Source of the DNA: a virus
IMG/VR virus record: IMGVR_UViG_3300035128_000105
Location: 1 to 61,517 of that record
DNA: 61,517 nucleotides
Direction: 5' to 3' (one strand)
Shown here one piece after another: positions 610 through 54,164 of the stretch; the stretch's first letter is position 1; each line of letters starts with the position of its first letter. A program made the translations under genes and the position numbers. The notes under the pieces were generated by a model. It worked only from the letters and a program-made list of their open reading frames with translations. It was not told the origin of the DNA and made no database searches.

Positions 610-717
610 AACTCGTTCGACGACTGCAGCCCTGACCGCTTGCTTTGCCGGCCGCGTTGCGGCAATGTCGGCGCATGGCGCACGCCGAAGGCAAGGACCC
701 GCACGCACGTGGGGCAT

Positions 718-2502
718 ATGGGCCTAATCCCTGACAATGTAATCGGCGAGATCCGCAAGCGATCGGACATCGTCGCCGTCATCGGCCGGCACGTTCAGCT
801 GCGCAAGGCTGGGCAGAACCACAAGGGGCTGTGCCCGTTTCACAACGAGAACACGCCGTCGTTCAACGTCAACGGCACCAAGGGCTTCTTTTACTGTTTC
901 GGCTGCCACAAAAAGGGCGACGTGTTTTCGTTCGTGATGGAGTACGAGGGCAAGAGCTTCGTCGAGGCCGCCGAGAGCCTGGCCGGACAGCTCGGCATCG
1001 TCATCGAGCGCACCGAAGAGCCCGAGCACGTGCGCCGGCAGCGCGACGAACGCGTCCAGCTTCTGCGCGTCAATAAACTGGCGACGGAGTTCTATCGTCG
1101 GCAATTATGTTCCGACCACGGCAGCGCCGGACGGCGCTACCTCGCCGACAGGGGGATTGGCGACACCGTAGCGGAGACCTTCCAATTGGGCCTAGCACCC
1201 GATAGCTGGAGCACGTTGACGGACTACCTCGCACACAAGCGCGTGCCGATGCATTTGGCCGAGACCCTCGGTCTGGTCGTGCCGCGCAAGTCCGAGGGCC
1301 ACTACGATCGCTTCCGCGACCGCCTGATGTGTCCCATCGTGTTGCCCGGCGGTGAGATTGCCGGGTTCTCCGGCCGCCGGCTCGGCTCGGGCGACGACGA
1401 CAAAGCGGGCGCCAAATACATCAACTCCCCCGAGAGCCCGGTGTACAAAAAGTCGCGCCTGCTGTTCGGTCTGCACGCGGCTCGCGACGCGTTCCGCAAG
1501 CGCAAGCGCGCGGTGCTGGTCGAAGGCAACTTCGACGTCATGGCGCTGCACGAGGCCGGCTTCGCCGAGACCGTGGCGCCTCTGGGCACCGCGCTCACCC
1601 GCGAACAAGCCGATCAGCTGCGCCGGCTCGCCGACAAGGTCGTGCTCATGTACGACGGCGACAAGGCCGGCCAGGCGGCGACGCTCAAGGCCCTGCGCGT
1701 GCTCGTGGCGGCCGACGTGGACGTGCGCATTGTGGTCGTGCCGCCCGGCGACGACCCCGATACCCTGGTCAAACGCCTCAGACCGGACAAGTTCGGCGAG
1801 ATGCTCGAACGCGCCCAGGGCGGTATTCAGTATTTTGCGTACGAAATCTGGGGCAAGAACACCGGCTCGGACCACAGCCAGGCTCAAGTGCTGAGCGAGG
1901 CTGCCAGCGTCATTCTGGCCATCAGAAACCCGACCAAACGAGATCTAGTCGTAGGCATCCTTGCCAAAGCCTTGAATATACCCCCGCAAGTGGTACAACG
2001 GAGCCTCTCGCGAGCCCGAGGCCAGCGCAATTCCGAGCAAAAACAACAGCAACGCCCCGTGTCCCGGGCCCCTGCCGCCCCTGCCGCCCCTGCGGCTCCC
2101 CCGCCCGACCTCGACGAGCTGGCCTTGTTGGCGATCCTGGCCGAGCACCCGCAATTGAGGGAAACGGCCGAACAGAATAGTGTTTTTTCCCTCTTGACGG
2201 ATGAGCGGCTTCGGGACATGTATTGCGCCGCACGTCAGAATCGATCTTATCTGTCCAATCCCAGCGAGTGGCCCGAGGATCTCAGCGCCCTGGTAGCCAA
2301 ACAAATGCTCGCTGGAGCATATGCAGATGTTAAGGACCCCAAGCATTGTCTCATCGAAGCGATCGGCGGCCTCAAGCGGTTGCAGCGCGCCAAGTTGGCG
2401 GCTCTCAAGCGCGAAGCCCAGACGGCAAAACGGCGAGGCGACGTCGAACTCGAACGCAAACTCGTTCGCGAGATTTTGATTACTAGAAGGCAGGTCGATT
2501 GA
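718..2502 (+). CDS. dnaG: DNA primase DnaG-like (CHC2 zinc finger + TOPRIM)
   Basis: [11 protein letters not shown]...[10 protein letters not shown] zinc-binding motif; TOPRIM motifs [16 protein letters not shown] and [11 protein letters not shown]; internal ATG at 718 chosen as start of the 640..2502 ORF. Confidence 0.9.
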
Positions 2503-28563: not shown

Positions 28564-28842
28564 GCGTCGATCCTTTCTGCGAGACGATCGACCTTACACA
28601 ATTGGTGTGACACAAGCGAGCGGTCCTCATCGGCCTGCGCAGCTAACACGACTGACAGTCAGACCGTCAACCGTTGATTGGCGTCTTGCCGGTTGTCCAC
28701 AAGGTTGCTGCAGGCATGCGAAATCGTAGGGTACCGATGTATAGACAAAAACGTGGAGTTATCCACAACGTGTACACACAAAAAAATGTACACGCTGCGT
28801 GAACGCAAAACGGTTGTCAGCGCGACGTGATAGCTAAGTGGC
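28564..28842. promoter_or_regulatory. divergent intergenic region with DnaA-box-like motifs (TTATCCACA 28759..28767; TTGTCCACA 28693..28701) and TGTACAC repeats
   Basis: AT-richer 279-bp gap between minus-strand NTPase gene and plus-strand SNF2 gene. Confidence 0.35.
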
Positions 28843-31485
28843 ATGAATCCCGTCGTCACGCCTTTCGCTCGACGACCCGACTGGTTCGTCGTGCCCGCCG
28901 AATGGCTGCCGGAGCTGGCTGGCGTACCAGGCGTGACGTTATTGGGCAGTGCAGGTGGTGTCCACCGCTCTCATCTACCCCTGCTGGCGCAAGCGCACCC
29001 TGAAGTGCACCCGTTTTTGAACGTGCCGTTGGAGAACCAGGCGGCGCGTAGTCGCCTAGATGCATCGACAGAACCACTGGGGTTCAAACTGCGTCCATAC
29101 CAACACGAAGGTCGCGAGTTTATCCATGCGCGACGAGGGACGTTGCTGGCCGATCAGATGAGACTGGGGAAAGGGCAGCCATTAGATGCATGCGTTTTGA
29201 CGCCCACAGGGTGGAAAACGATGGGCGATCTAATTGTAGGCAGCCGAGTCGTTGATCCCGACGGTGGCGAAGGCGTGGTGGAAGATATTTTTCCTCGGGG
29301 ACGCCAACGGGTCTACCGCGTCACGACGTGCGATGGTCGGAGTACCGAGTGCGACGAAGATCATTTGTGGTTGTTGCATACTGCGCATTCTCGGTGGCGC
29401 GGCGGAGATCCGCGTCCACGTGCGCTCAAAACGTTCAAAGACAACCTCTGGATCAAGACGCCAAGCCGATCGTGGGGGCGCGGCAACCGCCGTTTCTTTT
29501 TACCTTTGTGCCGACCGCCTGAAGGCGAAGATACCGATCTCTTCGTCGAACCGTACTTGTTGGGTTGCTTGCTGGGAAACGGCATGCTGCGCAGCGGCAC
29601 GCCCGAGATTTCAACGTCTGAGCGGGAGATTTTAGATCGCATTCGTCCGTCCCTCTCAGCTTACGGCGTCGTACCCAAAGCTGCTGGTGGTGTTGATTGG
29701 CGATTGTCCAGTCCAGCAGGGCAAGAAAACAAGCTAACGACAGCACTGCGTGCGCTGAAGTTGTGGGGCTGTGGTGCACAAGACAAATTCATTCCAGTCC
29801 AATATCTTTCCGCGTCGGTTCCTGTGCGGCGAGCACTCTTGCACGGGTTGATGGACACAGACGGAGACGTCACCGAGGAGCGGATCACGTCGTACAATAC
29901 AGTGTCTACACGTCTGAAAGATGACGTACGTGCGTTGATTGAAAGCCTGGGAGGTTTTGCCTCGGTTTACTACAAGGCGGCGCCACAGTATTCGTATCGT
30001 GGCGAGAAACGTGAAGGGCGCCCGTCTTATCGACTTCACATCCGGCTGCCCGCCAACCCGTTTCTGTTGGCTCGAAAAACGCAACGCTGGTCGAAGGGCC
30101 GCCTGGCGCGAGGCCTTGAAAGCGTTGAGTACGTTGGTGAGAAAGAAACGCGCTGCATCCAAGTATCAACGAAGCGCGGGCTTTACGTCACTGATGGCTT
30201 TATTGTCACGCACAACACGGCCACAAGCGTGATGTCCCACGATCCGGGCCTCGGGCCTCTCGTCATTGTTGCACCGCTGGCTACACGTGCTGTCTGGGTC
30301 GGTTGGATGAAACGGCGTTGGCCTGACGTCGAACCTGTCGTCTTGCGGGGACGAAAATATGACCCGACGAAGATCAGCGATGCGCCGTGTATCTTCATCC
30401 ACTACGACATCCTCCAAGCTCACCAGAATATGGGTCTACGCCGTCCAGGAACACTCGTATTCGACGAAGCGCACATTCTACAAAACCGTCGATCGAAACG
30501 CAGTCAGGCTGCAATTCTACTTGCGTCCCGCGCTGAGCGTGTCATCGCTGCGACCGGCACGCCGCTATGGAATCGGCCCATCGGGCTTTGGACAATTCTG
30601 TCAGTAGTCAACCCTGGAGCCTGGAATTCGTACTACGATTTTGCTCAGCGATACTGCGCCCCGAAGCTTACGGCCTACGGTACACGCTACGATGGTAGCT
30701 CGAACGAAGCTGAATTCAAACTACGAATAGCTGAGGTCATGATTCGTCGTGAATGGCGCGACGTACTAGAGGATCTACCTCCGTCGGAGCGAACCGTCGA
30801 GGTGGCCGACCTCACAGAAAGTCAGCTGTTCAAGCTCGAAGTTGCAGCCGAGAAAATTCGCGATCCGAGTAAACGCCGCGTCGCCGCAGGCGACATGGTG
30901 CGGTTTCGACGCCTCATCGGGCAGTACAAGGCAAAGTTGGCAGTGGACGTGGCGTCCCGTGTGCTTGCCGGTGAAGAGCCTGTCGTCGTCTGGGCCTGGC
31001 ATAGAGACGTTGCTGACAAAATCGCGACGAATATCGCTAAGCGGGACTACATCGCGTACTGCATTACAGGCGCCGACGATCAGGACGCACGTGACAGGAC
31101 TATCGACGAGTGGAAACGGCATCCTGTCGCCGCACTTGTACTGACAATTCCCGTCGGTCAAGTAGGTATCGATCTGTCACACGCGCGGCAGGCTATTTTT
31201 GCAGAGGTTGACTGGACACCTTCGACGGTAGCCCAAGCCGAGATGCGTACGTTCTCTCCGTACCGCCCCATGGCCATTACCTACCTCGTCGTTGATCACG
31301 ACGTCGATCGAGGTCTTATCGAGACCCTTCAACATAAATGCGAATTGGCCACGACGATTGGAGTCCCAGCGTCCGATACTGCTATCGATGTAATCGCCAG
31401 TGCCTTCGGGTTAAACCCCGACGATGCGGATATGGATCGATTAATGAAAGCCTTCCTCGCGGGTTATGACGGCGAGAGCAATTAA
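28843..31485 (+). CDS. SNF2-family DNA helicase interrupted by an intein
   Basis: LRPYQHEG, motif II VFDEAH, helicase C-domain; intein 29191..30216 inserted at P-loop region. Confidence 0.85.
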   Translation: MNPVVTPFARRPDWFVVPAEWLPELAGVPGVTLLGSAGGVHRSHLPLLAQAHPEVHPFLNVPLENQAARSRLDASTEPLGFKLRPYQHEGREFIHARRGTLLADQMRLGKGQPLDACVLTPTGWKTMGDLIVGSRVVDPDGGEGVVEDIFPRGRQRVYRVTTCDGRSTECDEDHLWLLHTAHSRWRGGDPRPRALKTFKDNLWIKTPSRSWGRGNRRFFLPLCRPPEGEDTDLFVEPYLLGCLLGNGMLRSGTPEISTSEREILDRIRPSLSAYGVVPKAAGGVDWRLSSPAGQENKLTTALRALKLWGCGAQDKFIPVQYLSASVPVRRALLHGLMDTDGDVTEERITSYNTVSTRLKDDVRALIESLGGFASVYYKAAPQYSYRGEKREGRPSYRLHIRLPANPFLLARKTQRWSKGRLARGLESVEYVGEKETRCIQVSTKRGLYVTDGFIVTHNTATSVMSHDPGLGPLVIVAPLATRAVWVGWMKRRWPDVEPVVLRGRKYDPTKISDAPCIFIHYDILQAHQNMGLRRPGTLVFDEAHILQNRRSKRSQAAILLASRAERVIAATGTPLWNRPIGLWTILSVVNPGAWNSYYDFAQRYCAPKLTAYGTRYDGSSNEAEFKLRIAEVMIRREWRDVLEDLPPSERTVEVADLTESQLFKLEVAAEKIRDPSKRRVAAGDMVRFRRLIGQYKAKLAVDVASRVLAGEEPVVVWAWHRDVADKIATNIAKRDYIAYCITGADDQDARDRTIDEWKRHPVAALVLTIPVGQVGIDLSHARQAIFAEVDWTPSTVAQAEMRTFSPYRPMAITYLVVDHDVDRGLIETLQHKCELATTIGVPASDTAIDVIASAFGLNPDDADMDRLMKAFLAGYDGESN
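29191..30216 (+). mobile_element. LAGLIDADG intein (342 aa) in SNF2 helicase
   Basis: starts CVLTPTGW, ends VTHN followed by T; LAGLIDADG blocks YLLGCLLGNG and LLHGLMDTDGD. Confidence 0.8.
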
Positions 31486-31601: not shown

Positions 31602-34355
31602 ATGACAGCACGCAGCAGTGACGCGACAACTGGCGTCACCACGACACCACCAGGCCTCGTGCGCCTGCCGACAACCGAAGTCGCTCCAGCGATCACCGAG
31701 ATCGCGCCGCCGATCGACCAGCCAGGCGACCAGCCAGGCGACCAGCCAGGCGACCAGCCAGGCGACCAGCCAGGCGACCAGCCAGACGACCAACCTTCTG
31801 CGGGTGTAGAACCTGTGCAATGCGTGGTTTGTGGCGCCGAAATGGATGCGACGACCGCTGAGGATATTTATCAGCATCCTGCTGATAAACCTTGTGTCGT
31901 TGTTTTGACGGACGGGAAGGGCGAGTCTATCGACCGCCAATTCTTCGTCGCTCAAGACGGCAACATCTATGTGATCGAGGCTGAAGCGGAGAGCACGCTG
32001 CCTCCAGTTCCACCGGAGGACGTCGTTACCGTCACACAAGAACCGACGGCCGACGCGGGTACTGCACCGGGTGAGGACGACGACATCGTTGAACTCGGCG
32101 AGCCTGTACTGCCTGACGTTTTTGGAGGCGAAAGCCCGAAGAAACGCAAACGCAAAACCAAAAAGAGCGACAACGTCGTGTTGCCGTCGAACGCCGCTGA
32201 GACCGCCGATGGCGACATCCTCATCCCGCTCAACCCGGATCCAGCAATTCCCACAATGGAAAAAGGGTTGCTGGCCGCGTTCGACAAGTATGGCTTGGAG
32301 CGCCTGGGTGGCGCCTCTGGGGATCTGGGTTGGTCGAGCTTCTCGTGTTACCAGCGCTGTCCTTACCTCTTCAAGCGGATGTACATCGACGGAGAAAAAG
32401 AAGAGGGACGTCCGGGACGTGCTATCGAGATCGGTTCGTGCTTTCACACGTTCGCTGCAATCCATTACCAAAAGATCATCACTCCCGATTATCCGCTCAC
32501 ACCCGACGAACTACACAAGTTTCTGATCGACTTCGGCGTGTCCATGGAGGCGTTGAGCGAAGCGTGGCGTGTGTGGGAAGGGTACCGCTTCGAGTACGAA
32601 GCCGACTACTTGGTCCCTTTGGCGGTCGAGTACCACATCGTCGATCCGAAAACCCGTGAGTCAGCTCGTTACGACTTGATCGCCAAAGTTGAGAAAGCTC
32701 ACCCCGGTGTTCCCGCAGGTACGTACGTAATCGAGCATAAGTGTTTGGTGGGTACCGAAATCATCGACGATCCAACGGGTCGTCGCGCGACCGTCGCCGA
32801 GCTGTACAACCGACAGCAGCCCTTCACGTGTCTGGCGTTTGACTCGAACGAAAGCGCCCTCGTGCAAGTCTCTGCCGATGTTCCACGTCCGACGACAGTC
32901 CGCGACGTCTATACGGTCACGACGGCTACCGGACGTCAATTGGCGACATCGGACAACCACCCATTCTACACGGCACGCGGCTGGGTACCCGCCGCCGATT
33001 TACGAACCGACGATTGGGTTGCGGTGCCAGCCACGACGGCTAGTAAGGAGCGTCGTCGAGAACTGTACACCGACGCCGAACTCATGTTCATCGGACATAT
33101 GATCGGCGATGGTTCCGCGAATCAGAACATCAAGTACACAAAGCAAGATCCGAAGCTTCGTGCGGCCTTTGTGGCGATCTTGCACAAACTTGATTTGTGC
33201 GCAGCAACCGCCGTCCGCGCCGGCACCTACCGTGTGGATCCCGGTGATGAAGATCATGCGCCGTCCATTGTACTTTCCAGTGCTAAGAAAGGCCGTGCCT
33301 GGCAACTCCTCAATCGTGTTGGGTTGCTGGGCAAACGCTCTCCAGAGAAGACACTAGACCGATCCTTGTTTGAATTGCCCGATCGGCAAACGCGGATCCT
33401 TCTTGCCGCGTTGTGGGATACCGACGGCTGCATCGACCTGTTTGAGGAACGGCGTCACGACAAGTCATCCCAGACCAAGGTCCGTATCGCGTACGCTTCA
33501 AGGTCCGAAGCGCTTTGTCGCGGCGTACAAACACTACTTCTTCGTCTTGGAATTAACAGCTCTTTGACGCAGTCGAGCGTCGAGTACGAAAGTGAGCGGC
33601 GTCCGTACTGGACAACAAAGGTAATCGGACGTGAAGCCAAACGCGCGTTCGTACGTGAGATCCAAACACGGGCCGTGCCTTGTGAAAAGTTTTCCGAGGA
33701 CTGGTTACGACAGGTACAAGAAGCAATCAAACCGGGGGACGATCGCCCCATACCAACTGCACTTATTGCCGGGTTAGCGATGACTAGCACGCAGCGCAGC
33801 AAACTGATCGGGGCGTCTACGAGGCCCAAGCATAGTGTGTACGCTTCGACGCTCGAAGCAGTACTGGAGGACGCAGCAAAGCCGATTCTGGCACCCCCAA
33901 TCCACTGGGATCGCGTGCAGTCGGTGCTCGTGACGGGCCGCGAAATGATGTATGACATCACAGTTCCGTTCGTTCACACATTCGTCGCCAACGACATCAT
34001 CACCCACAACACCGCAGGACGGTTCGATGATGCGACTCTCGACGGTTGGCGGAACGACGGTGAGATTCTAGGCCAAATCATGCTGTGGAAACGCCTCAAG
34101 CTGAAGAAGAAGTTCGGCAAGCTTCAGGGCGTGATGGTGAATGTTGTAGGCAAACAGAAAATCCAAAAGTTTCATCGGACGATCGTGCCGCCGCAACGCT
34201 GGCAAACGAATCAACACAGCAAAGACCTCAAGGTTTGGCAAGGCCTCCGGGTGTTAGCCATGGCCAGCAACACGTTTCCGCGTGCGCGGGCTAACTGCAT
34301 CGGTCGCTACGGCAAGTGCTCCCAGTGGCCCCACTGTGCGGACAGGGAAAAGTAG
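31602..34355 (+). CDS. Cas4/RecB-family PD-(D/E)xK exonuclease with N-terminal (PGDQ)n repeat, interrupted by an intein
   Basis: YQRCPYLFKRMY, D...IEHK motif split by intein, C-terminal Cys cluster CIGRYGKCSQWPHC. Confidence 0.75.
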   Translation: MTARSSDATTGVTTTPPGLVRLPTTEVAPAITEIAPPIDQPGDQPGDQPGDQPGDQPGDQPDDQPSAGVEPVQCVVCGAEMDATTAEDIYQHPADKPCVVVLTDGKGESIDRQFFVAQDGNIYVIEAEAESTLPPVPPEDVVTVTQEPTADAGTAPGEDDDIVELGEPVLPDVFGGESPKKRKRKTKKSDNVVLPSNAAETADGDILIPLNPDPAIPTMEKGLLAAFDKYGLERLGGASGDLGWSSFSCYQRCPYLFKRMYIDGEKEEGRPGRAIEIGSCFHTFAAIHYQKIITPDYPLTPDELHKFLIDFGVSMEALSEAWRVWEGYRFEYEADYLVPLAVEYHIVDPKTRESARYDLIAKVEKAHPGVPAGTYVIEHKCLVGTEIIDDPTGRRATVAELYNRQQPFTCLAFDSNESALVQVSADVPRPTTVRDVYTVTTATGRQLATSDNHPFYTARGWVPAADLRTDDWVAVPATTASKERRRELYTDAELMFIGHMIGDGSANQNIKYTKQDPKLRAAFVAILHKLDLCAATAVRAGTYRVDPGDEDHAPSIVLSSAKKGRAWQLLNRVGLLGKRSPEKTLDRSLFELPDRQTRILLAALWDTDGCIDLFEERRHDKSSQTKVRIAYASRSEALCRGVQTLLLRLGINSSLTQSSVEYESERRPYWTTKVIGREAKRAFVREIQTRAVPCEKFSEDWLRQVQEAIKPGDDRPIPTALIAGLAMTSTQRSKLIGASTRPKHSVYASTLEAVLEDAAKPILAPPIHWDRVQSVLVTGREMMYDITVPFVHTFVANDIITHNTAGRFDDATLDGWRNDGEILGQIMLWKRLKLKKKFGKLQGVMVNVVGKQKIQKFHRTIVPPQRWQTNQHSKDLKVWQGLRVLAMASNTFPRARANCIGRYGKCSQWPHCADREK
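31719..31790 (+). repeat. 12-bp tandem repeat (CAGCCAGGCGAC)x6 encoding (QPGD)n
   Basis: read directly from sequence. Confidence 0.9.
32742..34010 (+). mobile_element. LAGLIDADG intein (423 aa) in Cas4-like nuclease
   Basis: starts CLVGTEIIDDPTG, ends ITHN followed by T; LAGLIDADG blocks FIGHMIGDGS and LLAALWDTDGC. Confidence 0.75.
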
Positions 34356-34588
34356 TGCAACGCGCGTATCGGACAACGGACCTGACGGCGTTCAGTGTGC
34401 TCGATGACGAAGAGCGACAATCACTACTCTGGATCAAGGCGTTCCTCGCAGATCCGGAGTCCAAGGGTGGTTTCGCAACGCTGCAAGATTGCGGCTTCGA
34501 CATCATTCAAGATCTTTTAGATTATCTGAGTCGCTACCAGGCAGCGTACAACCAGCTGCGTGCCGATCTATTTTTGGAGGCGAGTTGA
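34356..34588 (+). CDS. hypothetical protein (GTG start)
   Basis: 77-aa reading frame after nuclease stop. Confidence 0.25.
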
Positions 34589-34590
34589 TC

Positions 34591-34869
34591 GTGGGTGCGA
34601 CTAAAAAGATCTCCCCAGCGATCGAACCGATCCCGGTAGCGATCGACGACGTAGATGCGATCGAAATTTGTCGCAACGAGAGCTGTCCGATCGTCGAGAT
34701 CCACGAGGCGCACGTGTTGCCGTCTGGGCGTGGCGCGCCGCCAAAACACTGTCCCGTATGCGTGGCAGTCATACCACGTGGACAGGGTGCACGATGTGAA
34801 GCGTGCGGCTGGAAACGTTCGGGGCGTCCCTTCGCGCGACGCAAGCAAGGAGAGAAAGACGATGCGTGA
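34591..34869 (+). CDS. small zinc-finger protein; paralog of N-terminal domain of 36448..37017
   Basis: GGAGG SD 10 nt before GTG; shared motif AIE(I/V)..(C/I)..(E/D)..C..IEIH. Confidence 0.45.
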   Translation: MGATKKISPAIEPIPVAIDDVDAIEICRNESCPIVEIHEAHVLPSGRGAPPKHCPVCVAVIPRGQGARCEACGWKRSGRPFARRKQGEKDDA

Positions 34870-35786: not shown

Positions 35787-36341
35787 ATGGCAGATCAAAA
35801 CAATCAGTTTGTGGACTTCATCGACATGCGCCTCAACGATCCGGAGTTGGAGGCTTGGGACGGTCGCGCTCGTCGCGTCGATCCCGGCTTCTACGACTTC
35901 GAGGTCGAGGAGGCCAAAATCGGTCAGTCCCGCGCAGGAAACCCTACACTGGAGTTGACCTTCCGAGTCATCACCCCGGGCGAGATGGAAAACCGCACCA
36001 TGCGGCAAAGCTACGTCATCATGCCCGACAACGACGGCGCTCGTGCCCGCATGAAGAACCTGATCAGCGCACTCGGTGCCAGCACCGACGGCGAAGGTCG
36101 GTTCGCGGCGAGCAACCTGGTCGGTTTGCGTATGAGCGGCGAAGTCGCCTTGCGGACCTACGAGACGCTCGATACCCGCACCGGCAATCAGGTGCAGCGC
36201 GAGAGCAGCTCGATCATCGGCGAGGCGCCGTGGGAAGGACAGCAACAGCAGCAGGCTCAGCCCGGCGTGGGTCGTGCACCGGTCGGTCAGGCCGTCGCTC
36301 GCCGTACGGGTGGCAACGCCGCTCCACAGGCGCGCGGCTAA
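35787..36341 (+). CDS. possible DUF669-like ssDNA-binding/annealing partner of Sak4
   Basis: AGGAGA SD; position adjacent to Sak4; Gln/Gly-rich C-terminal tail; weak family inference. Confidence 0.4.
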   Translation: MADQNNQFVDFIDMRLNDPELEAWDGRARRVDPGFYDFEVEEAKIGQSRAGNPTLELTFRVITPGEMENRTMRQSYVIMPDNDGARARMKNLISALGASTDGEGRFAASNLVGLRMSGEVALRTYETLDTRTGNQVQRESSSIIGEAPWEGQQQQQAQPGVGRAPVGQAVARRTGGNAAPQARG

Positions 36342-36447
36342 CACCGCTCGTTGTAGGTAGTGAGGGGCGCGCCGCTGTGCCAGAAGGACACTAAGCGGCG
36401 CGCTCCCGAACTTTTTACCAGCTGTACGGACCATGGGGGACTCCTGA

Positions 36448-37017
36448 ATGGCTACTCCGAAGGAACGACGGACATCTGACCGCTTTGCAGCTCACACGTT
36501 GGGGGTAACGACCGCCACGCTGCGAGCTTCTCGTCGAAAACAGACCGCTCCATTCTCATACGTTGACGACGGCGCTATTGAAGTCATCGACGCAACGAAC
36601 ATTTGTCGTGATGATCGTTGTGACCGGATCGAGATCCATGCGACGCACCCAGTAGACAGGCGGGCGACCGATCCGTTCTGCGACCCTACGTACCACACAC
36701 GTAAGGTGCAGCGGCACGGGCCGACGTTGAATGCGATCGTAGCCAAACACATCGAGCGTCGGCGCTGCAAAGTGTTCCGCGAGATCTACAACGACGTCAT
36801 CCACGACTACGGCACCTTCAAATCCAAGGCCGCCGGCACTCGTGCAATCTGGCGCGCTATCGAGCAACTGCTTGCAGCAGATCAAATCACGTCGATCAAA
36901 GTTGCCGGAACGAAATCTCCTGGCGGTTACGTCCGAAGTGACAGTCCACTGCTACGTGACAGCGACGGTCGCAGGTCGTTGCTCGAATCACTCGAAGACC
37001 AGTTCCCAACCTGGTAG
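36448..37017 (+). CDS. hypothetical protein with N-terminal zinc-finger-like domain paralogous to 34591..34869
   Basis: AIEVIDATNICRDDRCDRIEIHATH motif. Confidence 0.45.
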   Translation: MATPKERRTSDRFAAHTLGVTTATLRASRRKQTAPFSYVDDGAIEVIDATNICRDDRCDRIEIHATHPVDRRATDPFCDPTYHTRKVQRHGPTLNAIVAKHIERRRCKVFREIYNDVIHDYGTFKSKAAGTRAIWRAIEQLLAADQITSIKVAGTKSPGGYVRSDSPLLRDSDGRRSLLESLEDQFPTW

Positions 37018-37331: not shown

Positions 37332-40300
37332 ATGCCCAGTCCACCTAGATTTGGTGGCCCAGGCGGCTTGCCAGAGCCTGTATTGGGGCGCGGGAATCAG
37401 CTGCCGTTGTTTCGAGGAAAAACGGATGGTGCTGACTGCGCGCACTGTCCGTTTTCGCGTGATGGACGGCCGAATCGACCCGTAGTGGGAGAGGGCCCGG
37501 AGAATCCAAAATGGCTCGCAATCGGTGAAGGCCCTGGTCGCAATGAAGTCGCGATGGGAAGACCCTTCATCGGGGCCTCGGGTCAGATGGTCAACAAGGC
37601 GCTTCAAGCCATCCGACGACCGCGCGATCAAATATGGGTGGATAACTCCACATTGTGTCAACCTACTCCCTACGCGACCGACGAAGACAAAAAACTGGCC
37701 CGTAAATGTTGTGAGCCACGGTTCCGCGCACAAATCATGCAGTGGCCCGATCGGCCCATTCTCGCGTTAGGAGCTATCGCCGCCAGGGCGTTTTTGGGCA
37801 CGAGGTTCTCGATCAACGAGATGGCCGGTTCGTACCACTGGATCGAAAAGAAAAAGTGGGGCGCGCGAGCAGTCATTCCAACGATTCACCCCGCTGCCAT
37901 CTTGCGAGGCGGTGGTGGTATTGGTGGCGCGCATGCACCAGATCTTGCGTTTTGGAACCTGATCTACGATATGGCGAAAATCGATGCCATTGCCAACGGC
38001 AAGGACATCGTCTTTCGCGAAGATGACATTGCTACGGAGTACGAAGATCCAAAACGCGCTGAGCAGCTCGTGCGCCAGATGGTCTTGGACGCTCGTGCGT
38101 GTGGCATGATCGCGACAGATACTGAGACGTACGTCGAAGACGAGAGGAAACACTCGGCGCTTCAACCTCTGAACGCCAAGATGAGTGCGCTGGGTCTAGC
38201 AACGGAAGGATGGGGCCTGTCGGTTGCGTGGAACATCATGACGCCGTACGCCAAACGACTGGTCGCGAACGTTTTTGCTGATTACAACGTTCGCAAGGTC
38301 ATGCATAACCGGCTGTACGACCGTCCGGTACTCGCGCGACACGGCTTACCGGTGTATGGCCCAAACGACGACACAATGTTGCGTCATCATTCGGCGTTTC
38401 CAGGGCTATCTCATAGCCTGCAACGTGTAGCGACACAGTATTTCGCCATCACTCCCTGGAAAGCCGAGTTCCGCAAAGGTCACGACACGCCCGAAAACCT
38501 CACACGATACAACGCCAAAGACACACTGGTCACTGCACGAATCGACGCGCCGCTTACGATCGCACTCAAAAAAACGCAGTCCGAGCGTACGTACGAGATC
38601 GACCTCAAATCCACGGAAGTCGCCCAATGGATGCACGAAAAAGGTGTGCCTGTTTCACGTGAGGTCAATCAGCAACTGTACAACACGTTCCTGGAAAACA
38701 TGACTCAGGCCCGACAGGTCATGGAAGATGCTGCCTACGATCCAGCTATCCAAAAGAAGTTGTGGGATCGACTAGCGTTTGAGCAGGCCAAACGCATTCG
38801 CAAAGCCGATCCGATTGACGACTTCGAGGCGCGGCACAAGACTCGTCTCGAAGAAATCCAACACGCACACAACAAAGGACGTTGGCAGTGGAAGATTGGA
38901 TCGGGCGAGCACGTCGCTGCTTACCTCAAAGCGCGCGGCGTTCCGCTGTATTTCATGACGCCGACCGGACGTACGTCCACCAAAAAAGAAATCCTCGAAC
39001 AGTTTTCTCACCTGCCCGAAGTTCAATCCTTGCTGGATTACCGCGAGAACCAAAAGATGTTCTCGACCTTCGTCTACAGGTTTTTCGATCGATACGATGT
39101 GAACGGGAACATCGTTAAGTACGGATACGCGGACGAGGACAGCCGCATTCATCCGCGTTGGTCAGTCCACAAAATCACGGGTCGCTGGGGAGCCGAAGAC
39201 CCGATGTGCTTCGACGGCGACACGGAGATCCTTACTGAGAACGGTTGGGTCCGGTTCGATGCGCTTCCACGCAATGTTCGGGTGGCGCAGTATCATCTGG
39301 AGGATCGCATTGTAGATTTTGTTCATCCAACAGACTACATCGAGCGCCATCACGCCAGTTCGATGGTACGTCTACAAGGGAAAAATATCGATCTCGTTGT
39401 CACGCCTGATCACCGCTTCCCTGTACGACCTCGCCCCCGAAGGCGGTGCTCGAACCCACGATGGCGGGACATACGCGCTGATGCGTGGAAAAAAGAATAT
39501 CAACTCCCTGTTGCGGGCCGATACGTAGGGGGCTCGTGGGCTCCGTCTCCGGCCTACGTGTCCTTTGTATGTGCGGCGCAAGCAGACGGATCGTGGAACG
39601 GTTACGGCTGGTATTTTGGCCTCAGTAAGACGCGAAAGATAGAACGCCTACGCAACGTACTTGACACGTTGGGCCTGTCGTACCGTTTGACCGACAAAAC
39701 CGAACCGGACCCGTTTCGTGAAGGCACTTTTCGGACACGAAAAATAATCTACGTGCACAAATCCGAGGTGGGCGATGAAGTCGCACAACGGTTGGGGTTA
39801 ACAACGGGACAAACCGGGAAAGGCTTGTTCGGCGCGTGGGTCCTTGACCTCACAGCAACAATGTTGAACCAGTTTGCACTGGAGATCGAGTTTTGGGACG
39901 GCTGTCCAACACGTGAAGGGCAATTTGCGTCCTCACAGAAACAAAGTGCTGATTGGGCCCAAATCGCGTTTGTTTTGACAGACCGTCGCGCAAAAATTCG
40001 TCCATACAACAGCGGTGCCCTACAAACAAAGACGAATTGGCAAGTAGACGTAGCACGTCGCACGCGGACTAAAGGCGCTACGTGGTACATCGGAACTGAC
40101 CAGGCAGTAGCCACGGAAATTCCTGGATCAAAAATTGTTTACTGCGTCTCCGTCCCTTCGTCGTATATCCTCGTACGCCGCAACGGGAAAGTGGTTGTCG
40201 CCGGAAACTGTCAGAACTGGCCGAAGGCGAACAAAAAGAAGGGACGGCCCAATCTGCGGTCCCAGGTCGTTGCGCCGGACGGTCGTATCTTTGTTGGGTT

Positions 40301-42206
40301 CGACTTTGCTCAGTTAGAGGCCCGCATCATCGCGCTCTATAGCGGTGATCCGTTCTTGTGCGACATCTTTTGGAACCACAAAGACATTCACTCAGAGTTC
40401 GCGCGGGTCGTGTGGCCTAACTACGACTCATTGCCGATCGATCAGCGCAAGGTGTTGCGCGACACCATCAAACGCCCTGAGTACGGTGCGTTCTACGGCG
40501 GCCAGATCGACACCCTGTGGAAGAACGTCGTCAAGGATTACCCCGACGTCAAGCTCCAGGACATCGCCAAGATGGTCACACTGATGACGGCGAAGATGCC
40601 TGGCGTTACGTTGTGGCACAACAAGCTACTGCGTGACGTCGCAGTGGCGCCCCATGAGATCCGTAGTGCGGTGTACGGCCGTCGTCGTTGCTTCCCACTT
40701 GGCAACGCTGACATAAATGATGTCTACAATTTCCCGGTGCAGTGCCTACGAGGTGATCAACGCGTGCTGACGACAAACGGTTGGAAGCCAATCGAACAGT
40801 TGGTTCCTGGAGTCGATACGCTTATGCAGCCAAGCGGCCGTACAACGACGGCGTTCAAGCTGCGCAGTACGGGAACGCGTGACATCTACGAAGTACAAAC
40901 AAAAGGGCGGCGAATCTACTGCACGAAAGAACACCGATTCCTCACGTACGTACGGGGCGGCAAGGTCGCCTGGATGAAGACGCGATACCTTGAACAAGGA
41001 CGACATCTCGCAGTCGATTTTACGCCCGCACAGGGCGGTTACGATCCTCCCAACGTCAACCCTGCTATCGCGGAGGCACTAGGAGCCCTTGTCGGTGACG
41101 GCAACTACACAAGGCGTGGATTCGTCATTACGTGCACAACCAAAAGGTACGCTAACCACATCAAGCGGCTTGTCGAGACTTCGTGGCCTGACATGGTGTG
41201 CCGAGTCCGCTCCATAAAAAAACAAGCTGCAAAACACAAACAGCTCTGGTCGGTGTCATCAGAAGGACAGTTAGCAAGTGCGCGTCTCAAAGTTCTTGGG
41301 CTCCAACCCGCGACGGCAAAAGCCAAGAGTCTACCTACGTGGGTTGAGACTGCTACCTTGCCGACGCGTGTAGCGCTCTTGAAAGGTCTTTTTGACTCCG
41401 ATGGGGGACACACCGGCGTAGACGTGTCGTTCACGACGACATCATGGGAGCTTGCTAGAACTACGCAGCGGCTTTTGTTGTCCGTAGGCATCGACGCGCG
41501 CCACTACACGCTCAAACGTAGTCACCGTATTATCATTCGACCTACGAGCCGTCCTTTGTTCGATCAACTCATTGGGTTCACGTACAGCGAAAAACGGCAA
41601 CGCCTTCAATCTAGGCAGCACAAAAATCCCATCGACCGCTTGCCTTCTGATCTCGTCCAACACGTTGCACGGTTGCTCAAAAAACGGTTGCCAAAACGAG
41701 ACAAAGGTTGGACGAAGCTGGAGCACGCACGCCTTACTCGGGCGCTACAGGGATCGGCGAGCCAACAACAAATGGAGAAGATTTTTTCAGCGTGCCATCG
41801 CTGCGCCGAAATCGACGACATCGAACAGATATACACCGACGGCCTGAAGTTCTTTTGGGAAGAGATCGTCAGCGTAAGACGCGTTGGACGCGCCCAGACC
41901 TTTGAGCTGGAGATCGAAGACGATCATGGGTACGTGGCGGAGGGATTCGTTACGCATAATTCGACCGCTTCTGATGTCATGGCAACAGGCATGTTGCGGA
42001 TCGTCCCACGCCTTCAGCAAAAGTACATTAACGCATTTCCTATCCTCCAAATCCACGATGCAATGGTGTTCGAGTGCGACGAAGATGATGGTGAGCGCCT
42101 CAAGGAAGACGTCCGTGAGTGCTTCGAGCAGGAGCACACGTTCGGTGGCGTTACGATTCCCTTTCCCGTAGACCCCGCTGTGGGCAAAAGCTGGGCCCAG
42201 GTCTAG
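37332..42206 (+). CDS. Family-4 uracil-DNA glycosylase domain fused to family A DNA polymerase (3'-5' exo + Pol), interrupted by two inteins
   Basis: UDG motifs GEGPGRNE, GRPFIGASGQMVNKAL, IHPAAILR; exo MIATDTETYVED; PolA motif A GFDFAQLEARIIA, motif C QIHDAMVFE. Confidence 0.85.
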   Translation: MPSPPRFGGPGGLPEPVLGRGNQLPLFRGKTDGADCAHCPFSRDGRPNRPVVGEGPENPKWLAIGEGPGRNEVAMGRPFIGASGQMVNKALQAIRRPRDQIWVDNSTLCQPTPYATDEDKKLARKCCEPRFRAQIMQWPDRPILALGAIAARAFLGTRFSINEMAGSYHWIEKKKWGARAVIPTIHPAAILRGGGGIGGAHAPDLAFWNLIYDMAKIDAIANGKDIVFREDDIATEYEDPKRAEQLVRQMVLDARACGMIATDTETYVEDERKHSALQPLNAKMSALGLATEGWGLSVAWNIMTPYAKRLVANVFADYNVRKVMHNRLYDRPVLARHGLPVYGPNDDTMLRHHSAFPGLSHSLQRVATQYFAITPWKAEFRKGHDTPENLTRYNAKDTLVTARIDAPLTIALKKTQSERTYEIDLKSTEVAQWMHEKGVPVSREVNQQLYNTFLENMTQARQVMEDAAYDPAIQKKLWDRLAFEQAKRIRKADPIDDFEARHKTRLEEIQHAHNKGRWQWKIGSGEHVAAYLKARGVPLYFMTPTGRTSTKKEILEQFSHLPEVQSLLDYRENQKMFSTFVYRFFDRYDVNGNIVKYGYADEDSRIHPRWSVHKITGRWGAEDPMCFDGDTEILTENGWVRFDALPRNVRVAQYHLEDRIVDFVHPTDYIERHHASSMVRLQGKNIDLVVTPDHRFPVRPRPRRRCSNPRWRDIRADAWKKEYQLPVAGRYVGGSWAPSPAYVSFVCAAQADGSWNGYGWYFGLSKTRKIERLRNVLDTLGLSYRLTDKTEPDPFREGTFRTRKIIYVHKSEVGDEVAQRLGLTTGQTGKGLFGAWVLDLTATMLNQFALEIEFWDGCPTREGQFASSQKQSADWAQIAFVLTDRRAKIRPYNSGALQTKTNWQVDVARRTRTKGATWYIGTDQAVATEIPGSKIVYCVSVPSSYILVRRNGKVVVAGNCQNWPKANKKKGRPNLRSQVVAPDGRIFVGFDFAQLEARIIALYSGDPFLCDIFWNHKDIHSEFARVVWPNYDSLPIDQRKVLRDTIKRPEYGAFYGGQIDTLWKNVVKDYPDVKLQDIAKMVTLMTAKMPGVTLWHNKLLRDVAVAPHEIRSAVYGRRRCFPLGNADINDVYNFPVQCLRGDQRVLTTNGWKPIEQLVPGVDTLMQPSGRTTTAFKLRSTGTRDIYEVQTKGRRIYCTKEHRFLTYVRGGKVAWMKTRYLEQGRHLAVDFTPAQGGYDPPNVNPAIAEALGALVGDGNYTRRGFVITCTTKRYANHIKRLVETSWPDMVCRVRSIKKQAAKHKQLWSVSSEGQLASARLKVLGLQPATAKAKSLPTWVETATLPTRVALLKGLFDSDGGHTGVDVSFTTTSWELARTTQRLLLSVGIDARHYTLKRSHRIIIRPTSRPLFDQLIGFTYSEKRQRLQSRQHKNPIDRLPSDLVQHVARLLKKRLPKRDKGWTKLEHARLTRALQGSASQQQMEKIFSACHRCAEIDDIEQIYTDGLKFFWEEIVSVRRVGRAQTFELEIEDDHGYVAEGFVTHNSTASDVMATGMLRIVPRLQQKYINAFPILQIHDAMVFECDEDDGERLKEDVRECFEQEHTFGGVTIPFPVDPAVGKSWAQV
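39207..40208 (+). mobile_element. intein 1 (334 aa) in DNA polymerase
   Basis: CFDGDTEILTENGW start, VVAGN end followed by C; exteins rejoin as TGRWGAEDPM/CQNWP (PolA O-helix region). Confidence 0.8.
40743..41960 (+). mobile_element. intein 2 (406 aa, LAGLIDADG) in DNA polymerase
   Basis: CLRGDQRVLTTNGW start, FVTHN end followed by S; LAGLIDADG blocks ALGALVGDGN and LLKGLFDSDGG. Confidence 0.8.
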
Positions 42207-52423: not shown

Positions 52424-52690
52424 ATGAGCGCTGAACGGCGTCCGGCGGCGATCATCATCACGGCTGCCAAAGGTTTCAAAAACGACGCACGTAGCTTGAT
52501 CGGTCGCGCGATTCGTAACGCGTTGGGCATCCGGCAATGGCTGGTGATGCCGCATATGGTGAGCTACATCTCCGAATCGGAGGCTCGCTCCTACGGTGCT
52601 GGAGATGCACGCTATACGCTCGACGTGACAGACGCGGAAATGGCAGACATCGAAGACGAACTTTTCCGCCTGGCCGCGCTAGAAGGATAG
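52424..52690 (+). CDS. hypothetical protein
   Basis: 88-aa ORF. Confidence 0.3.
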   Translation: MSAERRPAAIIITAAKGFKNDARSLIGRAIRNALGIRQWLVMPHMVSYISESEARSYGAGDARYTLDVTDAEMADIEDELFRLAALEG

Positions 52691-54064: not shown

Positions 54065-54089
54065 AGTCTCTCCTACCATATTAATTGAG

Positions 54090-54164
54090 TGCGCGGAGCC
54101 GGACTTGCACCGGCACCCCCGAGATCCACAGTCTACGGTGCTCCACTATTTGAGCTACCCGCGC
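54090..54164 (-). tRNA. tRNA-like sequence (75 nt) with degenerate anticodon arm; possible pseudo-tRNA
   Basis: 7-bp acceptor stem (GCGCGGG/TCCGCGC), D-arm TAGCTCAAATAGTGGAGCA, T-arm GCCGG-TGCAAGT-CCGGC; anticodon stem only 3 bp around a CTGTGGA loop (GTG). Confidence 0.35.

Follow-up and report, generated by a model that had tools for sequence, protein, structure and literature searches.

A conserved array of predicted DnaA boxes between divergent helicase and SNF2 genes in a family of uncultivated phages

The window analysed here is a 61,517-nucleotide stretch of phage DNA (IMG/VR virus record IMGVR_UViG_3300035128_000105, positions 1 to 61,517), which represents 61.5 kb out of a 78-kb contig and whose positions serve as coordinates throughout. 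At 28564..28842, it contains a 279-bp gap between two divergently transcribed genes, a leftward gene for an SF3/D5-like helicase and a rightward gene for a SNF2-family helicase. We find that this gap carries an array of co-oriented 9-mers that resemble the binding sites of the bacterial replication initiator DnaA (DnaA boxes). Because relatives kept these boxes while the gap around them diverged, they are probably under selection and hence functional, and their sequence makes it quite likely that they are sites for the DnaA protein of the host. We tentatively propose, with a probability of roughly 0.4, that the gap is a DnaA docking array between divergent promoters that acts as an accessory factor for phage replication initiation. 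An original prediction, made from the letters of the window, had pointed to the gap as a candidate origin of replication or a regulatory site that titrates host DnaA; we retain the first of these as a candidate only and do not favor the second.

Box elements and their conservation

Two strong and two weaker elements make up the array. Box 1, TTGTCCACA, lies at 28693..28701 on the plus strand (extended form GTTGTCCACAA, 28692-28702) and box 2, TTATCCACA, at 28759..28767 on the same strand (extended form GAGTTATCCACAAC), 66 bp away from start to start. The high-affinity consensus is TTATCCACA in E. coli, Vibrio, Pseudomonas, and Bacillus and TTGTCCACA in Mycobacterium and Streptomyces (PMC4285127, Table 1); box 2 agrees with the former at 9/9 positions and box 1 is the latter, so that both correspond to the high-affinity 9-mer TT(A/T)TNCACA or to a published species-specific variant of it. 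Two bp past box 2 lies a weak R2-like box, GTGTACACA (28770..28778, plus strand), which contains the palindrome GTGTACAC and has three mismatches to the consensus, and the tandem pair thus reads TTATCCACA-AC-GTGTACACA. The fourth element, ATGTACACG, is a degenerate box at 28786..28794 (plus strand), which an 11-bp inverted repeat (28766-28776/28787-28797; repeat I5) pairs with the preceding one. Outside this group, the 5' leader of the helicase gene holds a weak box-like CCTTACACA (28592..28610, plus strand) within an imperfect inverted repeat, TTACAC-N5-GTGTGA (28594-28610), the half-sites of which are retained in L001 and L002 with a variable spacer (L numbers denote related loci). Reading the sequence confirmed the four elements, the gap coordinates, and the 66-bp spacing of the original prediction, with all four elements on the plus strand. 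The two TGTACAC repeats listed there are present; however, this 7-mer is unenriched window-wide (7 seen, 5.3 expected), and because L002 and L003 hold a consensus box where the window has ATGTACACG, the repeats are best read as degenerate R2-like boxes and ATGTACACG as a decayed copy. Specifically, the aligned position is TTATCCACA in L002 and TTGTCCACA in L003, each preceded by AAAAAGTT (in context, AAAAAGTTATCCACAGG and AAAAAGTTGTCCACAGG, respectively).

The gap is AT-richer than its surroundings, as originally noted, with 52% GC compared to 57% in the window. The AT-richest 40-mer of the whole window (28747..28786; 35% GC, 0.1 percentile) coincides with the array: box 2 and the weak box following it lie between an A5 tract (28747-28751) and an A7 tract (28780-28786).

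To what extent could two DnaA-like 9-mers have landed by accident in an AT-richer promoter region? Inside the window, the bare 9-mers are not above chance and there is no genome-wide enrichment; sites with at most one mismatch to TTATCCACA number 6 in the whole window, with 6.7 expected. A third exact box at 25924, considered as a second site, is located inside an 86-aa gene whose protein is conserved in L001 and L003, and the closest relative, L001, does not share the box; for these reasons, we treat it as evidently accidental. By contrast, the extended 11-mer GTTRTNCACAR has two copies in 61.5 kb, both inside the gap, with 0.47 expected for the whole window. More importantly, the comparison with relatives speaks against accident.

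Metagenomes, viral contigs, and two metagenome-assembled genomes (MAGs) supplied the 92 related loci of the comparison set. The divergent helicase/SNF2 pair is kept wherever both genes could be placed (37/37 in one tally, 78 loci in a larger one). In the clade of the window (L001-L006 and L038, with helicases 52-100% identical), the gap spans 264-400 nt and diverges fast, such that the sequence outside the boxes can hardly be aligned in relatives at 54-56%. Nevertheless, six of the seven lineages of this clade, including L004 and L005, keep a co-oriented TT[A/G]T[C/T]CACA that precedes the SNF2 start by 63-118 nt, and at the aligned position of box 2, TT[A/G]TCCACA is invariant in the window, L001, L002, and L003; the counterparts of box 1 in L002 and L003 are TCCACAA or TTCACAA sites. 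Across 15 non-redundant long gaps, TTRTNCACA was found 11 times, always directed toward SNF2, compared to 0.12 expected from the rest of the same loci (Poisson p ~1e-18, although p-values overstate independence because the loci share ancestry), and it is nearly absent from the flanking 6-13 kb. An unbiased 7-mer enrichment on 35 non-redundant gaps ranked the promoter words CTTGACA and TAGCGTG first, followed by a Shine-Dalgarno word and, directly after it, the box words ATTCACA, TGTCCAC, GTCCACA, and CACAGGG. Finally, clusters of at least two boxes within 70 nt numbered 14, with 5.7 expected, and 8 of them are in the helicase/SNF2 gap. With these counts, and with both 11-mers of the window in the gap, accident is effectively refuted.

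Other clades arrange the boxes differently. In the short-gap clade, only 29-122 nt separate the two genes and the gap is free of boxes. In two members of this clade, L008 and L030, 3-4 boxes with AAAAAGTT flanks are clustered, in 11-bp phasing, at a different intergenic position within the replication module, namely upstream of the homolog of the window gene at 36448-37017. A cluster at the counterpart spot upstream of 36448 in the window was considered and rejected, as only a lone TCCACAGG is present there, which is at chance level. This region of the window (36365-36415), between an ORF (open reading frame) ending at 36341 and the gene at 36448, contains a long GC-rich hairpin followed by a T-run and is terminator-like; the equivalent spot in L030 combines a terminator with the cluster of DnaA-like boxes. 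In distant relatives, the 3-5 boxes are placed mid-spacer, and a near-consensus promoter follows 50-110 nt downstream. In the 39-44% clade (L012, L013, L015, L016, L035, L049, and L074), the gap is a cassette with a small leftward gene for an excisionase/MerR-like helix-turn-helix (HTH) protein, an HTH promoter (TTGACT-N17-TAATNC), a perfect palindrome (TCTCGNCGAGA), and 3-5 DnaA-like boxes, which often form head-to-head pairs (CTATCCACAAGCTGTGGATCG). All boxes of the window clade are direct repeats in one orientation.

The predicted reader of the boxes

Several features suggest that host DnaA reads the boxes. First, when orthologous boxes of close-clade members are compared, only position 3 (A or G) and position 5 (C or T) change, and known DnaA boxes differ at these positions as well; in a compiled site list, in which sites were picked by consensus similarity, positions 1-3 are the most variable while T4 and C6-A9 are nearly invariant. 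The boxes are therefore conserved with variation at degenerate positions, the constraint expected of functional DnaA boxes. Second, the family consensus with its flanks is (A)(A/G)G-TT[A/G]TCCACA-[G/A]-[G/C], and the extended G-TTATNCACA-R matches the E. coli sites R1 (TGTTATCCACAGGG), R2 (GGTTATACACAAC), and R4 (AGTTATCCACAGTA); the 5' flank of box 2, GAGTTATCCACA, is the same as that of R4. The 212-nt stretch of oriC from which the flanks of R1, R2, and R4 were taken was 100% identical to E. coli chromosomes. Third, a strong box followed by a weak one after 2 bp is present in the window, L001, L002, and L004, where the weak box is CTGTACACA in L001, GTGTGCACA in L002, and TTACCCACC in L004, and box pairs in L005, L012, L013, L016, L030, and L035 have 11-bp phasing. 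Tandem pairs in which the upstream box is the better match are the most frequent layout in oriC (PMC8287927), and the pair in the window conforms to the tandem of a basal unwinding system, in which co-oriented boxes are at most 3 bp apart, the upstream one is nearer the consensus, and up to 4 mismatches are allowed. Together, the conservation, the variation at positions 3 and 5, the flanks, and the 2-bp tandem strengthen the original view that these sites are likely to matter. Because of the consensus forms, variable positions, flanks, and tandem spacing, and because no phage reader was seen, we consider the boxes likely DnaA sites.

Candidate phage readers were considered as follows. With domain IV of E. 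coli DnaA as query, tblastn returned only noise in the window (best E 0.02), which gives no indication of a phage-encoded reader resembling this domain. The small excisionase-like HTH protein is absent from the window clade and from the box-bearing L008 and L030. It accompanies the boxes in 19/19 loci of the 39-44% clade, but its gene physically adjoins them there, such that both would be lost in a single deletion.

The most plausible phage reader would be the adjacent SF3/D5-like helicase, which could bind through its C-terminal winged helix. The boxes would then be phage iterons arranged around an AT-richer core, with inverted pairs for head-to-head loading of hexamers, as in an origin of the SaPI or SV40 type, and their likeness to DnaA boxes would be coincidence or mimicry. 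The fold of the helicase, which is nearest to the self-loading initiator helicases Cch, SaPI5 and SaPIbov1 Rep, and D5, is in line with this explanation, as are the position of the AT-richer stretch, flanked by box 1 on one side and boxes 2-4 on the other, and the head-to-head pairs of distant relatives (CTATCCACAAGCTGTGGATCG), which resemble palindromic sites in origins of SF3 initiators. Moreover, a C-terminal motif of the helicase, FYKSP..LAQKLR, is kept across the whole family and could explain a constant site, and the 19/19 co-occurrence makes a phage-encoded reader conceivable in the 39-44% clade. On the other hand, an unrelated protein would hardly be expected to recognize a site that matches the DnaA consensus at 9/9 positions and combines DnaA-type degeneracy with E. 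coli-type flanks; all boxes in the window clade are direct and none is inverted, and the HTH gene is missing wherever boxes of the window type and the short-gap type occur. Helicases 68-69% identical to that of the box-bearing L012 adjoin box-free gaps in L032 and L040, which argues against the winged helix as the reader. We therefore regard recognition by a phage protein as unlikely, and host DnaA as the preferred reader.

Origin function and promoter control

The array lies between two candidate promoter regions. A candidate promoter of the leftward helicase operon at 28641..28670 (minus strand) consists of TTGACG (28670-28665), an 18-nt spacer, and TTAGCT (28646-28641). The blocks GTCAAC and AGCTAACACGAC do not vary among the window, L001, and L002, and the candidate has the same form as the CTTGACAG-N17/18-TAGCGTG promoter, which is strongly enriched in distant relatives. 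Closer to the helicase gene, its Shine-Dalgarno region at 28570..28580 (CAGAAAGGAT on the minus strand) is marked by GATCCTTTCTG, which is conserved in the window, L001, and L002. On the rightward side, a conserved TGTCA-N11-TAGCTA element (28815..28836, plus strand) ends 6 nt before the ATG of SNF2, and strict TGTCA-N11-TA spacing was read in 7 lineages; this element may act in translation initiation or be a promoter, either leaderless or dependent on an activator. The window contains four copies of TGTCA-N11-TAG, with 0.87 expected (28815-28833, 39648-39666 on the minus strand, 52612-52630 on the minus strand, and 58817-58835), which may represent a class of phage-specific promoters or activator sites. 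The copy at 58817 is intergenic and just upstream of the gene at 58867-59940. A sigma-70 promoter scan of the gap gave no match, and neither the TCTTGAC nor the TGTCA-N11-TAG geometry yielded a rightward promoter with a consistent -10 element or helical phase. The two inferred divergent -35 elements enclose the boxes in every clade.

Two other explanations for the boxes and their surroundings were rejected. The boxes are not -35 elements of tandem promoters, as their invariant bases, T4 and CACA, differ from those of the -35 hexamer; and a terminator-like hairpin on the minus strand over box 2 (28767-28752) is not kept in L001-L003.

Our working hypothesis is that the gap is a control hub of the phage replication module, with two divergent promoters and, between them, a co-oriented array of DnaA sites composed of two high-affinity boxes (28693 and 28759) and two or three degenerate ones (28770, 28786, and perhaps 28592). 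Host DnaA would nucleate on the strong boxes and spread to the weak box 2 bp away; DnaA binding, together with the bend of the A-tracts and the negative supercoiling between divergent promoters, would destabilize the segment 28747-28786; the opened segment would allow the neighboring SF3/D5-type helicase of the phage to load and start replication; and the phage DnaG-type primase and PolA would then take over. In this scenario, DnaA would be an accessory origin factor, as at P1 oriR and in iteron plasmids, and not the sole unwinding factor, as at oriC. The same bound DnaA would probably also modulate both promoters. In its strongest form, this hypothesis implies a hybrid initiation system in which host DnaA serves as the recognition and opening factor that loads a viral helicase of the SF3/D5/Cch type instead of DnaB, which we consider doubtful. 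To our knowledge, no case has been described in which a bacterial initiator feeds a helicase like those of eukaryotic viruses.

Three features of the context favor an origin: the array adjoins a gene for an initiator-type helicase, lies between the inferred divergent promoters, and coincides with the 40-mer of lowest GC content. In addition, the box cluster relocates within the replication module in the short-gap clade, and the near-consensus promoter beyond the boxes of distant relatives should work unaided by an activator.

Several lines of evidence weigh against an origin that depends on DnaA. The first is the lack of DnaA-trios. A basal unwinding system consists of one or more boxes, a spacer of at most 16 nt, and at least three NAN trios on the trio strand (PMC8287927). 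Our search was for NAN trios that begin 0-16 nt past the CACA end on the complement of the TTATCCACA strand; this orientation rule was inferred from the "5'-tail" wording of PMC8287927 and from the position of the E. coli R 13-mer beside R1. None of the boxes in the window has such trios, and 2/40 family boxes do, which is below the counts for the other three middle bases; a defining feature of an oriC-type origin unwound by DnaA is therefore missing. Similarly, the gap contains no convincing 13-mer-like unwinding element, and the AT minimum, which overlaps box 2, is short, itself contains boxes, and in relatives is often located elsewhere in the gap. A search for separate iterons found none: the boxes are the only repeat family in the gap (D1), no tandem repeats were found, and there is no array of at least three direct repeats specific to the initiator of the phage. 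Some lineages (L001 and L004) have only one strong box, and the fetched DNA of L007, L032, L040, and most of the short-gap clade has none. Because several relatives are free of boxes, the element must be dispensable or replaceable. It should also be considered that the motif was searched for, which is a selection effect, and a coincidental look-alike read by another protein has to be reckoned with. Finally, SF3 initiator helicases normally recognize their own origins without DnaA.

Skew analysis, which the original prediction had named as a check, covered 61.5 of 78 kb and adds a further point on this side. AT skew tracks transcription direction (coefficient 0.06). GC skew does not depend on transcription and includes a weak positional term (~+/-0.02), for which a switch at 22-26 kb gives the best fit and one at 28.5 kb a marginally worse one (delta chi-square ~4.5); the effect amounts to ~5% of the variance. 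The cumulative GC-skew minimum is at 22724, and no obvious non-coding element is linked to the switch at 22-26 kb. The result is mildly unfavorable to an origin in the gap but not decisive. The original proposal of an origin finds partial support in the neighboring initiator helicase, the inferred divergent promoters, and the AT minimum, but not in trios, iterons, a kept unwinding element, or the skew, and the gap is a candidate origin only.

Clustering of GATC was also considered as an oriC-like feature and rejected, because the gap holds 2 sites with 2.2 expected. The GATC density is 8.0 per kb in the window (~2x random) and reaches 17 per kb in relatives. Sites in the window are packed most tightly at 34350-34800, with 11 in 300 nt, and long-gap relatives without boxes have GATC-packed gaps (L032, 15 vs 3.7 expected; L007, 7 vs 2.5; L040, 8 vs 4.0).

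The boxes may serve promoter control only. In this case, host DnaA would be a transcription factor that couples the helicase operon and/or the SNF2-PolA operon to the DnaA-ATP status of the host, and the origin would be elsewhere or initiation would depend on recombination. We rate this as a somewhat less probable explanation than a docking array for initiation. DnaA acts as a transcription factor at lambda pR and at the bacterial dnaA, nrd, and sda promoters. Promoter control would account for the constant placement of the boxes between two divergent -35 elements; for the position of box 1, whose center is ~62 bp upstream of the inferred leftward transcription start and ~51 bp, one helical turn closer, in L005, L012, L013, and L045; and for the single strong box that is enough in L001 and L004. 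The relocated cluster of L008 and L030 is also directly upstream of a promoter-like CTTGCGCG-N18-TAGA. This explanation is likewise compatible with the lack of trios and of a convincing unwinding element and with a skew switch off the site, and the Sak4 and RecB-like nuclease encoded by the phage are compatible with recombination-driven replication. However, the boxes stand at variable distances from the candidate rightward elements (9-48 nt from TGTCA and 50-110 nt from CTTGACAG) and keep no constant helical phase. In distant relatives, the rightward promoter comes close to the consensus and should work without an activator, and the mid-spacer clusters of 3-5 boxes in both orientations exceed the needs of a simple operator. 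Moreover, the promoters are inferred, and the sigma-70 scan was without a match. If the boxes only tune promoters, they are an ordinary, though well conserved, borrowing of a host transcription factor.

The second function in the original prediction, titration of DnaA, would make the boxes a sink that sequesters host DnaA in the manner of datA and shuts down host initiation, with no role in initiation or transcription of the phage. High-affinity boxes multiplied by the phage copy number could, on general grounds, rival the chromosomal pool of boxes. T5-like phages keep DnaA boxes for a proposed non-replicative purpose (bioRxiv 10.1101/866236). However, a genome has just 2-4 boxes and the motif is unenriched elsewhere in the window. 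Because titration would not require a kept placement between divergent promoters, we do not favor it; the single orientation and the 2-bp tandem would also be unexplained, and a sink is very improbable.

If DnaA indeed docks at the array, a whole uncultivated phage family wires its replication module to the universal bacterial initiator, and the array provides a rare handle, readable in sequence, on replication start and on the sensing of host physiology. If a hybrid system were realized, phage replication would be directly sensitive to the DnaA-ATP status of the host. The array is a concrete ~120-bp fragment that can be used with any purified DnaA without knowing the host.

The replication module and comparison with known systems

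The gap is a non-coding control region between a leftward helicase operon and a rightward SNF2 operon, as judged from the ORF map and the kept gene pair. Relatives have no common open frame in the gap, and no known RNA family in Rfam matched within 27500-30000. Genes to the left of the gap are transcribed leftward and genes to the right rightward. The helicase is a 542-aa protein (26935-28563, minus strand), identical in sequence to JGI gene call P0001; the "D5-like NTPase" of the original prediction proved to be an SF3/D5-like initiator-type helicase with a C-terminal winged helix. The 880-aa SNF2-family helicase (28843-31485, plus strand), the first gene of the rightward replication operon, is split by an intein that belongs to the LAGLIDADG type and is missing from L002-L006. 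The rightward operon also encodes a PD-(D/E)XK nuclease with an intein, a Sak4-like annealing protein, a UDG-PolA fusion with an intein, a thymidylate kinase, and a DinG-like helicase.

Each of three replication genes contains a LAGLIDADG intein (SNF2, 28843-31485; PD-(D/E)XK nuclease, 31602-34355; UDG-PolA, 37332-42206). Intein presence varies among relatives, and some homologs have an intein in the helicase instead (P0010, P0065, and L034-L037). The N-terminal region of the nuclease gene includes a near-perfect 12-nt tandem repeat, CGACCAGCCAGG (31715-31792; 6.5 copies, 98% matches), which overlaps a weak match to the PT-repeat of Pfam. A full-length DnaG-type primase with zinc ribbon, catalytic core, and Toprim domain is encoded at 640-2502 (plus strand), on the opposite strand and distant from the replication module; the match to its DnaB-binding domain is borderline (20.4 bits vs a cutoff of 20.6), and no DnaB-like helicase was seen in the window. 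In PHROG 47, a DnaG-like primase and a helicase of the present type are fused in one protein.

Elsewhere in the window, a promoter-like A-tract with CTTGCGTG-N17-TAGCAA (25783-25822, minus strand) lies upstream of the gene at 25191-25772 and closely resembles the CGCGCAAG(T/C)TTTTT elements beside the box clusters of L008 and L030. An 881-aa protein (20936-23581, minus strand) has a Major Vault Protein shoulder domain (E 5e-26) and a Vault_3 repeat; a vault-like protein is unusual in a phage, and a vault-like gene likewise follows the helicase operon in L004, L005, and the contig of P0006. A tRNA-His is located at 54089-54164 (minus strand).

Relatives of the locus were found solely in metagenomic sources. 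In the GenBank phage collection, neither the DNA of 27000-31000 nor the helicase protein had a match, and a first scan of viral contigs with a single helicase protein gave no match. The family consists of uncultivated soil and sediment phages without GenBank relatives. Host labels conflict: the homolog P0028 is labelled as a Candidatus Sigynarchaeota MAG, and other loci are in MAGs of Gemmatimonadota (L007) and Polyangiales (L008). The Gemmatimonadota locus lies within a 4.7-Mb MAG chromosome and may be a prophage; the Polyangiales locus is on a MAG contig.

Compared with known systems, the gap shares with bacterial oriC the 9-mer, the extended G-TTATNCACA-R flanks, a strong box followed after 2 bp by a weaker co-oriented one, A-tracts, and AT-richer surroundings. 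It differs in having 2 strong and 2-3 weak sites in one orientation and no opposed arrays; in being without a 13-mer unwinding element, DnaA-trios, and GATC enrichment; and in adjoining an SF3 helicase gene rather than dnaA/dnaN or gidA/mioC. In P1 oriR and the iteron plasmids F, pSC101, RK2, and R6K, one to few DnaA boxes are likewise located beside the initiator gene of the element itself. In these origins, DnaA assists opening but does not define the origin. They also have arrays of Rep iterons and recruit host DnaB, whereas no second iteron family was found in the phage gap and the phage has a helicase of its own, of the SF3/D5 type.

Among phages, lambda offers a precedent for promoter control, as DnaA stimulates pR, the early promoter for the replication genes, and thereby ties phage replication to the host initiator (PMC7466680). 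The proposed similarity is host DnaA at an early phage promoter driving replication genes. In lambda, however, the O-protein iterons are inside the O gene, DnaB is hijacked through P, and weak DnaA sites are downstream of pR, while the boxes in the present gap are of consensus strength and lie upstream of and between inferred divergent promoters. T5-like phages have pairs of DnaA boxes in the injection-stop (iss) region; in T5, 8 boxes are embedded in inverted repeats in the terminal repeat, far from replication genes and mapped origins, and membrane anchoring was proposed as their role (bioRxiv 10.1101/866236). As in the gap, these consensus or near-consensus boxes are conserved in the family, form close pairs (3 bp apart in T5, 2 bp here), and are in a long non-coding region; T5-like phages show that an origin does not follow from the conservation of DnaA boxes in a phage.

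In the origins of SaPI, SV40 large T antigen, and papillomavirus E1, as in the present phage, the origin or candidate origin is beside the gene for a self-loading initiator helicase of related fold, and short repeated sites flank an AT-richer core, with inverted pairs in the distant relatives of the phage. The sites in those origins are specific for the initiator and are not DnaA boxes, whereas here the site is the universal DnaA box and its presence does not track the phylogeny of the helicase. DnaA boxes in control or origin regions of phages and plasmids are already known, and here they are well conserved in a family without cultivated relatives; the unusual aspect is their pairing with an SF3/D5-type helicase. 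If the two work together, they form an unusual mix of bacterial and viral initiation parts.

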